Part shown: positions 10,513-16,078 of the stretch, piece by piece
Layout of the letters: each line of letters opens with the position of its first letter
Position numbering within the stretch: position 1 is the stretch's first letter
NCBI GenBank assembly: GCA_965208325.1
Contig: OZ242326.1
Location: forward strand, 3,168,001 to 3,232,000
Origin: Candidatus Poribacteria bacterium
Lineage (GTDB): Bacteria; Poribacteria; WGA-4E; PCPOR2b
Length of the DNA: 64,000 bases
Reading direction: 5' to 3'
Notes under the pieces: model-generated
What the model was told of the DNA's origin: nothing
The model's input: only the letters and a program-made list of their open reading frames with translations
The model's database searches: none
Made by a program: the position numbers and the translations under genes

Positions 10513-11289
10513 ATGAAGCAAATCTTTTTTGAGATTAACAACCGATTGAAGTTGATTGTTCTTGAATTGCAAGAACTCACACTTTTCATCGGTCGTGTGA
10601 TTCGCAGCTTGTTCCGAAGGCCTCGATATTGGAAAGACTTGTTTGACCACATGGATATTCTGGGCGTGGGGTCGATTGTAATTGTGCTCATCGCGGGGTG
10701 TTGCGTCGGGGCTATTATTTCAATGGAAACCCTGTTCCAACTTCGGTCATACGGTGCACAGTCTTTCCTCGGCCGTGTAACAGGCGATTCGATCGTCCGA
10801 GGCGCAGGCCCTGTCTTCACAGCGATGATTGTTTCCAGCCGCATCTGCCCAGCGACTGCTGCTGAACTGGGATCGATGCAAGTGAGTCAACAGATTGATG
10901 CGCTCGTGACGATGGGTATTGACCCTATTCGCAAACTGATTACGCCGCGCATCATCGCTAGCCTTTTTATATACCCAGCCCTTACATGCGCCCATACTGT
11001 AGCAGCCCTGCTATCGGGCGGTTTAGTTGCCGAGTTATCGGGCGAGTTAACACTAATGCGATTTCTAAGAGAGTCTTTGGCTGAAGTTTCGTCCGGCGAT
11101 TTACTTTGGGGATTGATGAAGGCAGTCGTATTCGGCCTAGTGGTGGTAACGCTTGCCTGCTACTCCGGTATTCGAGTGTCCGGTGGAGCAATTGGTGTAC
11201 GTAAAGGTGCTACGCGTGCTGCGGTTAATGCCATTTTGCTCATACTATTTTTTGACTTTCTGGTAACTAGCATAGGCAGATCGTTCTAG
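10513..11289 (+). CDS. mlaE: MlaE-family ABC permease
   Basis: GPV.TA...R...AAELGSM.VSQQIDAL..MG.DP...L..PRI.A; GGA.GV...AT.A.V. Confidence 0.88.
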   Translation: MKQIFFEINNRLKLIVLELQELTLFIGRVIRSLFRRPRYWKDLFDHMDILGVGSIVIVLIAGCCVGAIISMETLFQLRSYGAQSFLGRVTGDSIVRGAGPVFTAMIVSSRICPATAAELGSMQVSQQIDALVTMGIDPIRKLITPRIIASLFIYPALTCAHTVAALLSGGLVAELSGELTLMRFLRESLAEVSSGDLLWGLMKAVVFGLVVVTLACYSGIRVSGGAIGVRKGATRAAVNAILLILFFDFLVTSIGRSF

Positions 11290-11439
11290 GATGAAATAAC
11301 CGCGATTGCCGGTTTAAGTGTTTGAAGTTGGTTGGATTTGTCACTGCCCGAAGAAGAAAATCGTGCTTGAAAGTATTTGCTCGTTCAACTAAAAAACATT
11401 CCACGATGAAACTGACTTCGCGGCAGCCGTTAAATCAAC

Positions 11440-12198
11440 ATGATTATACTGAAAAATATTGATTTTTTTTATGGGGATACACAAATCCTCAAAAATATCA
11501 CATTTGATATCCCCGCTGGGGAAGTGACCACGATTCTTGGGCCAAGCGGATCGGGGAAGACTACGCTACTTCGTATCTTAACCGGATTGCTTGAACCTGC
11601 AGGCGGCGAAATCTGGATGCGTGAAAAGAGTATGATGACGTTGTCTAAAACAGAACAGGAACACATGCGAAATAAAATGGCGATTGTCTTTCAGAACGGT
11701 GCGCTTTTCGATTCTCTCACTGTTTGGGAAAACGTCGCTTTCCCGCTTCACGAACGCTTTTCAATGCCGCTGGCAATCATTCGCCAAGAAGTTGACAAAC
11801 TCCTTGACTTAGTTGGATTGCAGAACGCCGCCGACTTGACAATTAATCAATGCAGCGGCGGAATGCAGATGCGAGTTGCTATTGCCCGCGCTTTTGCTTG
11901 TCACCCGGAAATTATTCTTTACGATGAACCGACTTCAGGACTCGATCCGATTGCACGCGACCGTATCTGTGATTGTATACAAAATCAACAGTTCCAGCAC
12001 AATGTGACGTCGGTACTCGTGACCCATCAGTTGGCCACGGCGTTTCGTGTTTCCAAGCGCTTCATTTGCCTCTACGCCGGTGAAATCCTTTTTGACGGTA
12101 CTGCTGATGAATTAACAGCATCAAAAAATCCCTATGTTCAAAGATTCATTCAACCTTCGAAGCGGGTTTATCGGGCACTCGATTCCAGTTTGACCTAA
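11440..12198 (+). CDS. mlaF: MlaF-family ABC ATPase
   Basis: Walker A GPSGSGKTT, FQNGALFDSLTVWENVAFPL, SGGM..RVAIARA, YDEPTSGLDP. Confidence 0.9.
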   Translation: MIILKNIDFFYGDTQILKNITFDIPAGEVTTILGPSGSGKTTLLRILTGLLEPAGGEIWMREKSMMTLSKTEQEHMRNKMAIVFQNGALFDSLTVWENVAFPLHERFSMPLAIIRQEVDKLLDLVGLQNAADLTINQCSGGMQMRVAIARAFACHPEIILYDEPTSGLDPIARDRICDCIQNQQFQHNVTSVLVTHQLATAFRVSKRFICLYAGEILFDGTADELTASKNPYVQRFIQPSKRVYRALDSSLT

Positions 12199-12251
12199 TT
12201 CCCAATGTTTATCGCCGAGCGAATTTGAAACAATTCACGGAGAAATAATTC

Positions 12252-13580: not shown

Positions 13581-13660
13581 ATATATAAATAATTCTGTCA
13601 CTGAATCATTCAAATCATACTGCCAAGCTTCTCACTGTTAAGTAATGATTGGAACGCGCA

Positions 13661-14872
13661 ATGGATTTATTTGAAAAATGTTTGGATTTTACCAGTGGTA
13701 AGAGTGTCCTCGGGAAAGGTACCAAACAAGCACGAGAAGCGGGGCTTTATCCTTACTTCATTCCAATCCAAGAATCCAGAGATACTGAAGTCCTTATTGA
13801 CGGCGAAAAAAAGGTGATGATTGGCTCCAATAATTACCTCGGTTTGACGCATCACCCGAAGGTTCTTGAGGCGGCGGCTGCCGCCGCCCAGAAATTTGGT
13901 TCTGGCTGCACGGGAAGCCGTTTTCTGAACGGGACGCTCGATATTCACATCGCGCTCGAAGAAGCGCTTGCCGAATTCGTACATAAGGAGGCTGCGTTAG
14001 TTTTTAGTACCGGCTTTCTTGTGAACCTTGGTGTGATAGGCGCGCTTGTAAAGCGCAAGGACATCGCATTCATTGATGCTTTGAGTCACGCGAGTATCGT
14101 CGATGCATGTCTGTTCTCTCGTGGAGAAATGGTAAGATTTGCGCATAACGACTTAGACGATCTCAGCCGCAGATTGGAATTAGCGGCTTCCCGAGCAGGT
14201 AAGCTTATAGTTGTGGAAGGTGTTTACAGTATGGAGGGCGACATAGCGAATCTTCCCGGTATCGTGGAAGCAGCCCAAAAACACGAATGCCGATTGATGG
14301 TTGACGATGCGCACGCAGTTGGTGTACTTGGACCAACAGGCGCAGGGAGTGCCGAACACTTCGATGTTGAAAACGATGTCGACCTCATTATGGGAACTTT
14401 CAGCAAGTCTTTCGCATGCATTGGAGGTTTTATCGCTGGTGAAGCGGCCGTACTAGACTACCTGAAACACCATGGGCGCAGTTTAATCTTTAGTGCAAGC
14501 ATGCCCCCATCCGCAGTTGCGACCGTACATGCGGCGTTAGAAATCATCAAGTCCGAACCGGAACGGCGGGAACGGCTTTGGCGGAATACCCGAAAAATGC
14601 AGGAAGGGTTCCGGTCGCTCGGATATGACATCGGCCAGTCTGAGTCGCCTGTTGTTCCAATTCTCACCGAAGATGATACCACAGCCTTGGTACTTTGGAG
14701 ACGCTTGCTTGACGAGGGAATATTCACAAATCCAGTTCCCGGCGCCAGTGCTGCCGTGCCGCCGGGAGGTGCGCGCCTTCGTACAAGCTATATGGCGACA
14801 CACACTGACGATCACCTCGACTTTGTACTTGACAAGTTTGCGAAACTCGGTAAAGAACTAGGGATTGTTTAA
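13661..14872 (+). CDS. spt: PLP-dependent alpha-oxoamine synthase, most similar to bacterial serine palmitoyltransferase
   Basis: GLYPYF..I, GSNNYLGLT, GC.GSRFLNGTLDIH, HASIVD, DDAH, GTFSKS (PLP lysine); next to a ceramide-synthase-like GNAT. A BioF/Kbl-type activity is not fully excluded. Confidence 0.75.
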   Translation: MDLFEKCLDFTSGKSVLGKGTKQAREAGLYPYFIPIQESRDTEVLIDGEKKVMIGSNNYLGLTHHPKVLEAAAAAAQKFGSGCTGSRFLNGTLDIHIALEEALAEFVHKEAALVFSTGFLVNLGVIGALVKRKDIAFIDALSHASIVDACLFSRGEMVRFAHNDLDDLSRRLELAASRAGKLIVVEGVYSMEGDIANLPGIVEAAQKHECRLMVDDAHAVGVLGPTGAGSAEHFDVENDVDLIMGTFSKSFACIGGFIAGEAAVLDYLKHHGRSLIFSASMPPSAVATVHAALEIIKSEPERRERLWRNTRKMQEGFRSLGYDIGQSESPVVPILTEDDTTALVLWRRLLDEGIFTNPVPGASAAVPPGGARLRTSYMATHTDDHLDFVLDKFAKLGKELGIV

Positions 14873-14917
14873 GAATTGAACATAGAACGCAATTTTTGCT
14901 AGATACCAATATTCAAC

Positions 14918-16078
14918 ATGGAAGTTGTTGTCACTCGGGTTCATACGAAATCGGATCTCAAGGCATTCATTAGCTTGCCATGGCAGATATACCGCGGCGA
15001 TACAAATTGGGTACCGCCGCTGCGCGGACATCTCAAAAACCGGTTAAATTTGTCTAAGCACCCGTTTATTGATTCCGCTGATGCGGCACTTTTTATTGCG
15101 CGTTGTGATGGACGAACCGTTGGCAGTATCGCTGCAATCAACAACCATAACCATATTGATTTTCATAAGGAGGCTGTGGGTTTCTTTGGATTTTTCGAGT
15201 GCATCCAAGACCGCAAAGTAGCCGAAGCCCTGTTTTCTCATGCCGCTGATTGGTTGCGAACTCATAACTTGGAAATAATGCGCGGGCCCACGAGTTACTC
15301 AACGAATGAAGAATGTGGTTTGCTAATTGATGGATTTGATCGCCCGCCCGTCATCATGATGCCGTATAACCCGCTCTATTATGTCGACCTCATTGAAGGC
15401 TTCGGCTTCAAGAAAACAATGGATTTGCTCGCGTACGAAATCACCGATGAAGTACCCTTGCCTGACCGCCTGAAGAAAACCGTTAAATTAATCGAAAAGA
15501 GAAAAAAAGTCACAACGCGCCGCCTCAATGTAAAACAGATTGACCAAGAAGTTCGACGCGTGAAGGAAATCTATAACTCTGCATGGGAGAGAAACTGGGG
15601 ATTTGTCCCAATGACAGATAAAGAAATCGATCGCCTGGCGGCGGAACTCAAACCGATTGTCGATCCTGATATTGTGCGATTTGCCGAAATTGAAGGTGAG
15701 GCAGTTGCATTTGTCCTGTCCTTACCCGACTTCAATCAAGTGCTGAAGTATACCAACGGGCGGCTATTTCCGTTTGGGTTGCTCAAATTGCTCTGGCATA
15801 GCGGCAAAATCTGGCCTGCTCGAAATAAAATTGACAAGATTCGCGTACTCACGCTGGGTATAAAAAAAGAATTTCGGCGGCAAGGAATTGATGCACTGCT
15901 GTATTACTATTCCTACGTTGAGGGCAAGAAAAAAGGGTATCGGCGGGCAGAATTGTCGTGGATTTTAGAGGATAACACCCTCATGAATCGAGCGCTGGAA
16001 AACATGGGGGCGAGAGTCTATAAGCGCTATCGGATTTATGACTACCCGCTGGTTGACACCGCTCGCGAAGCGGCATGA
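14918..16078 (+). CDS. Double-GNAT acyltransferase resembling bacterial ceramide synthase (bCerS family)
   Basis: F..LP..IY..D.NWVPPL, GFFGFFE, RGP, GLLIDGF..PP...MPYNP.YY, NWGFVP, ELSWILEDN..M; directly downstream of the spt-like gene. Confidence 0.7.
   Translation: MEVVVTRVHTKSDLKAFISLPWQIYRGDTNWVPPLRGHLKNRLNLSKHPFIDSADAALFIARCDGRTVGSIAAINNHNHIDFHKEAVGFFGFFECIQDRKVAEALFSHAADWLRTHNLEIMRGPTSYSTNEECGLLIDGFDRPPVIMMPYNPLYYVDLIEGFGFKKTMDLLAYEITDEVPLPDRLKKTVKLIEKRKKVTTRRLNVKQIDQEVRRVKEIYNSAWERNWGFVPMTDKEIDRLAAELKPIVDPDIVRFAEIEGEAVAFVLSLPDFNQVLKYTNGRLFPFGLLKLLWHSGKIWPARNKIDKIRVLTLGIKKEFRRQGIDALLYYYSYVEGKKKGYRRAELSWILEDNTLMNRALENMGARVYKRYRIYDYPLVDTAREAA

Follow-up and report, generated by a model that had tools for sequence, protein, structure and literature searches.

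Bacterial ceramide synthesis by a serine palmitoyltransferase (Spt), a ceramide synthase (bCerS) and a ceramide reductase (CerR) was reportedly defined in Caulobacter crescentus, with CC_1162, CC_1154 and CC_1164 as the respective genes, in work by Stankeviciute from 2022 and by Olea-Ozuna from 2021. Here we compare with that pathway a locus from a 64-kb stretch of a Candidatus Poribacteria genome (contig OZ242326.1; "the window" throughout means this whole stretch), in which genes for a Spt-like pyridoxal phosphate (PLP) enzyme and for a GNAT-family N-acyltransferase directly follow those of an MlaE-MlaF-MlaD transporter. The two enzyme genes probably form the conserved core of bacterial ceramide synthesis; their reading as a Spt and a ceramide synthase is well supported and makes this a system of known kind. 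A coupling of the pair to the transporter beside it appears unlikely.

Related gene clusters have been described in several groups of bacteria. That of Escherichia coli B/BL21 comprises aasR, epi, acpR, spt and yghO, according to PMC9386255, and in an E. coli PN43 record recovered in our searches (L083, positions 2343-10122, beside glcC) lptF and lptG paralogues stand with genes for a Spt-like protein, an acyl carrier protein (ACP), an epimerase/dehydratase and a fatty acyl-AMP ligase, and with yghO. The transport candidates co-located with proteobacterial clusters are described as LptF/LptG paralogues together with a flippase (PMC11324152). Beyond the proteobacteria, Ding et al. (2024, ISME J; PMC11334938) report that genes for Spt-like proteins, bCerS and CerR are co-localised in metagenome-assembled genomes of many phyla.

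The PLP enzyme and its GNAT partner

Of the NCBIfam models, SerpalmtaseCFB matches the PLP enzyme best (506.7 bits), followed by Spt BetaP (414.3), a BioF/Kbl-related model (388.4), BioF (377.1), Kbl (365.2) and Spt AlphaP (332.6). Solved structures rank in a similar way: the top matches in the PDB are the Sphingobacterium Spt chains 3a2b and 8guh, at 401.7 bits, and Sphingomonas Spt reaches about 301, against 252.7 for Kbl, 226.9 for cysteate acyltransferase, about 223 for BioF, at most 197.5 for 5-aminolevulinate synthase (ALAS) and 115.6 for CqsA. We then placed the protein in a tree of 64 sequences. Beside the window protein this holds 51 relatives that are linked to a GNAT and 12 reference proteins taken from annotated records, among them the Sphingomonas parapaucimobilis Spt (near-identical to PDB 2jg2), a Parabacteroides homologue, Kbl from E. 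coli and Bacillus, and BioF from E. coli and Alicyclobacillus. All rows except the two Kbl and two BioF sequences fall into one 60-row clade, which includes the verified Spt (support of 99 in the Shimodaira-Hasegawa-like approximate likelihood ratio test, SH-aLRT). Within it the window protein pairs (SH-aLRT 100) with that of locus L001, the closest relative among the matches listed (67% identity for Spt, 63% for the GNAT and 51% for MlaD), and a Gemmatimonadota-rich group joins the two next (99). Both the model and structure scores and this clade thus bear out the first-pass annotation, made from the letters of the DNA, in calling the enzyme a Spt rather than a BioF or Kbl. By its sequence, the window Spt belongs to the Bacteroidota/deltaproteobacterial subgroup and not to the proteobacterial subgroup that uses AcpR. 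Its start is likely the ATG at 13661: from there the first codons (ATGGATTTATTT) line up with the beginning of the L001 orthologue; the ORF finder's alternative, a TTG at 13649, would give 407 rather than 403 aa, with the same end at 14872.

The partner gene encodes a protein that, on homology, is a member of the bCerS/YghO family. Full-length matches link it to E. coli YghO (37% identity, 4e-84), to an N-acetyltransferase of S. parapaucimobilis (34%, 2e-79) and to a Roseomonas GNAT (37%, 2e-75), and PMC9386255 gives "aca: CC_1154, yghO ECD_02850, Swit_3908" as orthologous N-acyltransferases of dihydroceramide synthesis. Gene position agrees. The S. parapaucimobilis cluster runs from an NAD(P)H-binding protein (cerR) through ACP and Spt to, further on, LptF, LptG, a desaturase and the GNAT, and in Roseomonas the GNAT gene is flanked by an LptF/G pair and an NTP-transferase gene, as CC_1154 is; these clusters match the layout of the Caulobacter region CC_1168-CC_1152 described in PMC11324152. 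Homology to YghO, and to GNATs that occupy the CC_1154 position in two other genera, upholds the earlier description of the window GNAT as ceramide-synthase-like.

General-purpose resources say less about this protein. Pfam returns a weak Acetyltransf_1 match (2.2e-6, residues 214-364), and no NCBIfam model matches even at E = 10, so that the library apparently contains no bCerS model. The best E-value in a PDB sequence search is 0.9, and look-alikes in an atlas are generic GNAT clusters only. A structure model built from 16 sequences (predicted local distance difference test, pLDDT, 81.6; predicted template modelling score, pTM, 0.81) shows two GNAT-like halves, and its best fold matches in the PDB are the tandem GNATs 2wpw, 7q3a, 5kf1 and MshD; no solved bCerS structure occurs among the PDB sequence and fold matches. 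The family is very large, with 7960 of 8000 scored candidates under E = 1e-3 and every named member a plain "GNAT", and 45 records of a plasmid collection carry a full-length homologue, with YghO and the S. parapaucimobilis and Roseomonas proteins among them.

Public annotation gives bCerS-family proteins only the generic label "GNAT family N-acetyltransferase", and its standard name for Spt-like proteins of the clade is "8-amino-7-oxononanoate synthase"; with such names, sphingolipid potential is under-annotated. A plasmid of the Bacillota species Priestia megaterium encodes an alpha-oxoamine synthase of the Spt clade that shares 46.9% identity with the window protein (L092, 5001-6215), with genes for a membrane acyltransferase and a methyltransferase upstream and no bCerS-family GNAT annotated nearby.

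We also considered the idea that the GNAT might be an acyltransferase other than bCerS, which arose from the report by Ding et al. that bCerS was not found near Spt in Cloacimonadota (PMC11334938). A Cloacimonadota locus among those listed (L011) does carry a GNAT-family gene; it shows no Spt in its 988 bp of upstream sequence, and with the homology to YghO the idea was dropped.

Recurrence of the pair and genes absent from the window

Species-representative genomes, when scanned with an alignment of 16 GNAT sequences, gave at least 80 loci; all locus counts in this text are among the matches listed. The listed loci come from Zixibacteria, Gemmatimonadota, Ignavibacteria, Calditrichota, Chloroflexota, Myxococcota, Nitrospirota, Spirochaetota and other phyla. 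Where at least 1300 bp of upstream sequence is present (71 listed loci), a Spt-like gene precedes the GNAT gene on the same strand in 51, at a distance of 436 bp or less in 47 of the 51; nine listed loci are too short upstream, two of which show a partial Spt. This adjacency is far above chance.

A third gene recurs with the pair. It encodes an extended short-chain dehydrogenase/reductase (SDR) of about 330 aa, with a Pfam Epimerase domain and with HpnA and the lipid 3-oxo reductase OleD as its best NCBIfam models. CerR-like SDRs scoring at least 160 bits occur in 42 of the 80 listed loci; 40 of these are among the 51 Spt-GNAT loci, mostly directly beside the pair. Cultured Rubrobacter and Streptomyces have spt-GNAT-SDR operons, and in Aureispira a divergent SDR gene adjoins spt-GNAT. 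A PAP2_3-family membrane protein is encoded a few kilobases from the GNAT in 12 of the 80 listed loci (L021, at 3988-4914, and L002, L018, L026, L038, L043, L044, L050, L064, L068, L071 and L072), a candidate head-group transferase or phosphatase acting on ceramide.

The listed loci without Spt do not group as a single paralogue clade; they are scattered over a few subclades of the GNAT tree, with six rows from Ignavibacteria and about seven from Chloroflexota. Subclades with no Spt in 10 kb upstream contain L009, L010, L012, L013, L024 and L046 from Ignavibacteria/Chlorobiota, and L015, L016, L039, L058 and L073 from Chloroflexota; a class IV aminotransferase gene lies 3' of the GNAT in L009, L012 and L013. 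In such subclades Spt may be encoded elsewhere in the genome, or the GNAT may acylate another amine.

Several observations weigh against reading the window pair as the core of ceramide synthesis. The PLP enzyme scores under every NCBIfam equivalog cut-off (640 bits for SerpalmtaseCFB, 500 for BetaP, 670 for AlphaP), and the Spt tree is a quick search with four non-Spt references and with no HemA/ALAS, cysteate acyltransferase or CqsA rows. The window protein has, unchanged, the lysine that binds PLP and the four catalytic residues His, Asp, His and Arg (taken here as K265 and as H159, D231, H234 and R390 in Sphingomonas paucimobilis numbering), and all 52 GNAT-linked sequences of the alignment keep them. 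Kbl and BioF share the same residues, which therefore suggest an active enzyme and do not discriminate in favour of Spt specificity. The connection of the GNAT with bCerS runs through YghO, gene position and the published orthologue list, not through the sequence of a Caulobacter or Bacteroides bCerS. Nor is the GNAT family always linked to Spt, since 20 of the 71 listed loci have none upstream. Finally, a tblastn search of the 64-kb window with 35 neighbour-derived SDR proteins gave no match to a CerR-like reductase at E < 1e-3, and the window contains neither an ACP nor an acyl-ACP synthetase, which leaves the visible pathway incomplete.

The absent genes differ in what they imply. Pfam scans of the window, covering 42 open reading frames (ORFs) of at least 150 aa and 22 smaller non-overlapping ORFs, found no member of the Epimerase, PP-binding (ACP), AMP-binding, STAS or MlaC families in these ORFs and no MlaA family member in the 64 kb. 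The first-pass annotation had seen neither a ceramide reductase nor a dedicated ACP in the window, and on this point the tblastn and Pfam searches agree with it; where it took the absent ACP to be meaningful, it needs correcting. A dedicated AcpR/AasR is described for the Spt subgroup of alpha-, beta- and gamma-proteobacteria (PMC9386255), and because the window Spt falls in the other, non-proteobacterial subgroup the absence of an ACP is expected and carries no signal. The absence of a reductase is unusual, given the CerR-like SDR in 40 of the 51 listed Spt-GNAT loci. The reductase gene may lie in another part of the genome, or the product may stay unreduced in this lineage. L001 likewise has no CerR-like SDR within about 2 kb downstream of the GNAT. 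At L001:11866-12894, after a 750-bp gap, it has instead a GFO/IDH/MocA oxidoreductase gene in the place where other lineages have the CerR-like SDR; this might be an alternative reductase or unrelated.

The transporter genes and the shared gene string

By Pfam, three consecutive genes ahead of the pair encode a permease, an ATPase and an MCE protein, and so an MCE transporter (Table 1). Orthology to E. coli MlaFEDB with its MlaB, MlaC and MlaA partners was not found: all three proteins score under the NCBIfam equivalog cut-offs (142.6 against 315 bits for MlaE and 54.5 against 135 for MlaD; MlaF is in the table), the partners were not found in the window, and the MlaF score of the ATPase is only slightly above those of many other ATP-binding cassette (ABC) ATPase models. 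In the MCE protein a membrane helix at the N-terminus is predicted to be followed by a single MCE barrel and then by a helical tail some 300 residues long: in its structure model a helix spans residues 10-41 and strands span 43-140 (pLDDT about 80), and helices at 145-431 are of low confidence (mean pLDDT 53.3). In the consensus of its alignment a G-x-G-[ST]-x-[GA]-K-L-like motif recurs at intervals along the tail (about residues 170-410), in four or more copies, and is conserved across the alignment. Only 20 clusters, with identities of 52-96%, have this MlaD form of about 441 aa, and one of the 20 bears the name Candidatus Poribacteria; after them come matches of 350 aa at 29% identity. Match tables of MlaD homologues give the Pfam accession PF28544.

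Table 1. The Spt-GNAT pair, the transporter genes before it and the features that border them, in positions of the window
Feature	Position	Strand	Length	Basis
Spt-like alpha-oxoamine synthase, PLP enzyme	13661..14872	+	403 aa	Pfam Aminotran_1_2 1.3e-60; NCBIfam SerpalmtaseCFB 506.7 bits
Tandem-GNAT N-acyltransferase, bCerS/YghO/CC_1154 family, candidate ceramide synthase	14918..16078	+	386 aa	Full-length YghO homology; Spt linkage
MlaE-family ABC permease	10513..11289	+	258 aa	Pfam MlaE 1.8e-58; NCBIfam TIGR00056 177 bits vs cut-off 212
ABC ATPase, best model MlaF	11440..12198	+	252 aa	Pfam ABC_tran 3.6e-37; NCBIfam MlaF PRK11831 191.3 bits vs cut-off 441
Long MCE/MlaD-family protein	12252..13580	+	442 aa	Pfam MlaD 1e-13, residues 45-122; NCBIfam Mtu_fam_mce 5.4e-10, residues 15-284
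M16 (insulinase-family) peptidase subunit a	6611..8239	+		Pfam Peptidase_M16_C 8.2e-32, Peptidase_M16 5.2e-15; L001 orthologue 64% identity
M16 peptidase subunit b	8236..10461	+		Pfam Peptidase_M16_C 6.1e-36; L001 orthologue 62% identity
Rubredoxin-like small zinc-ribbon protein	6321..6593	+		Pfam RUBY_RBDX 3.7e-9; same family at L001:1511-1765
Strong terminator-like hairpin, 3' of the rubredoxin-like gene	6619..6642			10 pairs, T8 tail
Reg_prop beta-propeller and SpoIIE/PP2C phosphatase	16125..19298	-		Pfam Reg_prop 1.9e-71, SpoIIE 2.7e-35

From MlaE to the GNAT the five plus-strand ORFs are separated by gaps of 150, 53, 80 and 45 bp, so that the co-oriented arrangement with gaps of 45-150 bp noted at first pass is confirmed from the coordinates. 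The string extends beyond it, to two M16 peptidase genes that overlap each other by 4 bp and end 51 bp ahead of MlaE. From 6642 to 16078 none of the gaps showed a terminator-like hairpin in a simple scan, which also gave no promoter-like site on the plus strand in the MlaD-Spt gap; in this promoter and terminator scan sites were rarer than in shuffled sequence, and its consensus may not apply to the host phylum. The string is presumably co-transcribed. A transcription unit may begin at the hairpin at 6619-6642. The TTG start of the first peptidase gene, at 6611, overlaps this hairpin, and the true start is probably further downstream. Downstream, the convergent propeller-phosphatase gene closes the string and is outside the system.

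The whole order is kept in L001, which runs from a rubredoxin-like gene through M16a, M16b, MlaE, MlaF and MlaD to Spt and GNAT and loses synteny right after the GNAT; the rubredoxin-like gene is the upstream edge of the block common to both. Intergenic alignments of the two loci show no conserved motif in the MlaD-Spt or Spt-GNAT gaps. The sizes of contigs listed for different query proteins give a hint that the Mla-Spt-GNAT linkage persists within the lineage, called Poribacteria-like here after three named matches at 58-76% identity: a 4,082-bp contig is listed for both an MlaD orthologue (58%) and a Spt orthologue (76%), both named Poribacteria, a size of 22,131 bp for MlaD and GNAT homologues at 96% identity each, and one of 30,097 bp for MlaD (56%) and GNAT (66%) homologues. 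Beyond the lineage the picture is different. In a tblastn search (E up to 1e-5), L001 was the only one of the 80 listed loci with MlaE and MlaD homologues no more than 10 kb from the GNAT. The expectation of the first-pass annotation that the mla-spt adjacency would be conserved in relatives therefore holds inside the lineage and fails outside it.

Could the transporter nevertheless serve the pair? It may have been recruited into a sphingolipid operon to carry (oxo)ceramide away from the inner membrane and across the periplasm, with the long helical MlaD as a bridge. Such a coupling would fit the co-orientation, the 80-bp MlaD-Spt gap with no terminator-like site found between, the preserved order in L001, the linkage in further relatives suggested by equal contig sizes and the restriction of the long MlaD form to the lineage; the route of sphingolipids to the outer membrane is, moreover, stated to be unknown in bacteria (PMC11324152). 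We nonetheless judge it unlikely. The other 50 listed Spt-GNAT loci have no MlaE or MlaD in the sequence covered, the transport candidates linked to proteobacterial clusters are LptF/LptG paralogues and not MCE proteins, and equal contig sizes are indirect evidence. MlaEFD systems are, besides, common housekeeping genes of diderm bacteria. No lipid role is obvious for the two M16 peptidases or the rubredoxin-like gene that the block conserved in L001 also includes, and common descent consequently accounts for the order no less well than function.

The proposal of the first-pass annotation that an MCE transporter traffics the sphingolipids thus finds no support beyond adjacency, and a literature search for Mla or MCE systems paired with bacterial sphingolipids found nothing relevant. 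MlaEFD is most simply the organism's MCE lipid transporter, encoded in the same co-oriented string, and its place beside the pair is a lineage-specific gene order that may have no functional significance. To the wider question of how sphingolipids of bacteria pass the envelope, the locus contributes a candidate in a hypothetical MCE-mediated transport. The most specific form of that idea, in which an MCE transporter with a helical MlaD extension of about 300 residues has, in this lineage, joined spt and bcerS in a single transcription unit and serves as an inner-to-outer-membrane sphingolipid carrier, is unlikely; because no CerR lies nearby, such a transporter may carry unreduced oxo-ceramide. 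If true, no MCE system would have been linked to sphingolipid traffic before it, and bacterial sphingolipids would have a route to the outer membrane other than Lpt.

Elsewhere in the window, four consecutive genes (28109-29992, 31702-33579, 33670-35559 and 35650-37548) encode PD40/WD40-like beta-propeller paralogues of about 625 aa. Further arrays consist of three PD40 proteins of about 340 aa and of three Laminin_G_3 proteins in a row, the arrays together lying within 28109-37548, 49481-52794 and 53257-56028.

Proposed pathway and comparison with known systems

The catalytic activities of Spt and GNAT are predicted from their sequences, and their substrates, the order of steps and the cellular locations we infer by analogy with Caulobacter, where Spt and bCerS are described as cytoplasmic and CerR as periplasmic (PMC11087976). 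In the pathway we propose, a soluble, PLP-dependent Spt would condense serine with a long-chain acyl thioester, probably acyl-CoA, to give 3-ketosphinganine; the cytoplasmic tandem GNAT would then acylate the amine of 3-ketosphinganine, yielding (oxo)ceramide. Reduction of the 3-keto group to dihydroceramide, carried out elsewhere by the CerR-type extended SDR, would depend on a gene that lies outside the 64-kb window or is missing. Neither the Spt nor the GNAT translation has the hydrophobic N-terminus of an exported protein, which fits a cytoplasmic location as in Caulobacter.

The identity of the amino acid used by the synthase is where a different outcome might be sought. If its preference differed, the pair would make another N-acylated amino-ketone lipid, built on a 1-deoxy (alanine-derived) base or on one derived from glycine, lysine or cysteate. 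Ding et al. write only of "Spt-like" proteins and put forward alanine or lysine as possible substrates (PMC11334938). The window protein lies under the curated Spt cut-offs, and its loop reads A-S-A-A-V, after a two-residue insertion, where S. paucimobilis has the PPATP motif. Against this, it falls among sequences with a Bacteroidales Spt homologue in their number and matches solved Spt far better than cysteate acyltransferase (401.7 against 226.9 bits), and the neighbours of the pair in other phyla, the CerR-like SDR and the PAP2_3 protein, fit a ceramide pathway; we consider another base distinctly unlikely. That the GNAT is instead an ordinary small-molecule or protein acetyltransferase with no lipid role, placed after Spt incidentally, is hardly credible: its bare database name, the sugar and mycothiol tandem GNATs among the best fold matches of its model and the listed loci without an upstream Spt would allow it, but the adjacency to Spt recurs across many phyla, the full-length homologue YghO is a listed orthologue of CC_1154, Sphingomonas and Roseomonas have the gene in the same cluster position, and the Spt-less loci are scattered over the GNAT tree.

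The ceramide-synthesis reading can be set beside the described systems in turn. Like the Caulobacter pathway, the window has a Spt-clade PLP enzyme and a homologue of CC_1154/YghO, here adjacent and co-oriented; unlike it, the 64 kb contain no CerR, AcpR or AasR, so that the three-enzyme set is not complete in the window, and MlaEFD stands next to the pair in place of the LptF/LptG paralogues of proteobacterial clusters. The E. coli yghO cluster shares with the window a homologous acyltransferase, YghO being 37% identical to the window GNAT, and a Spt-like protein in the same 60-row clade, but brings all five ceramide genes together, with a dedicated ACP, whereas the window has two of the five. 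The transporter resembles E. coli Mla (MlaFEDB-MlaC-MlaA) in its MlaE permease, its ATPase with MlaF as best model and its protein with one MCE domain after an N-terminal helix; it differs in the absence of MlaB, MlaC and MlaA from the window and in the length of its MlaD (442 aa, some 300 of them in a helical tail), which recalls the longer actinobacterial Mce proteins (Mtu_fam_mce, 5.4e-10).

The nearest counterpart to our comparison of genomes is the survey of Ding et al. In its main text Poribacteria and Zixibacteria stand at 0 occurrences, though its supplement could list them, and the part of the article available to us makes no mention of an Mla neighbour (PMC11334938). The listed loci reproduce the co-localisation reported there for Zixibacteria, Gemmatimonadota, Ignavibacteria, Calditrichota, Myxococcota, Nitrospirota and others. 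That spt, GNAT and SDR genes occur together widely among uncultured phyla agrees with the published metagenomic surveys, and with the spt-bcerS pair of the window a Poribacteria-like lineage joins those predicted to be able to make sphingolipids.

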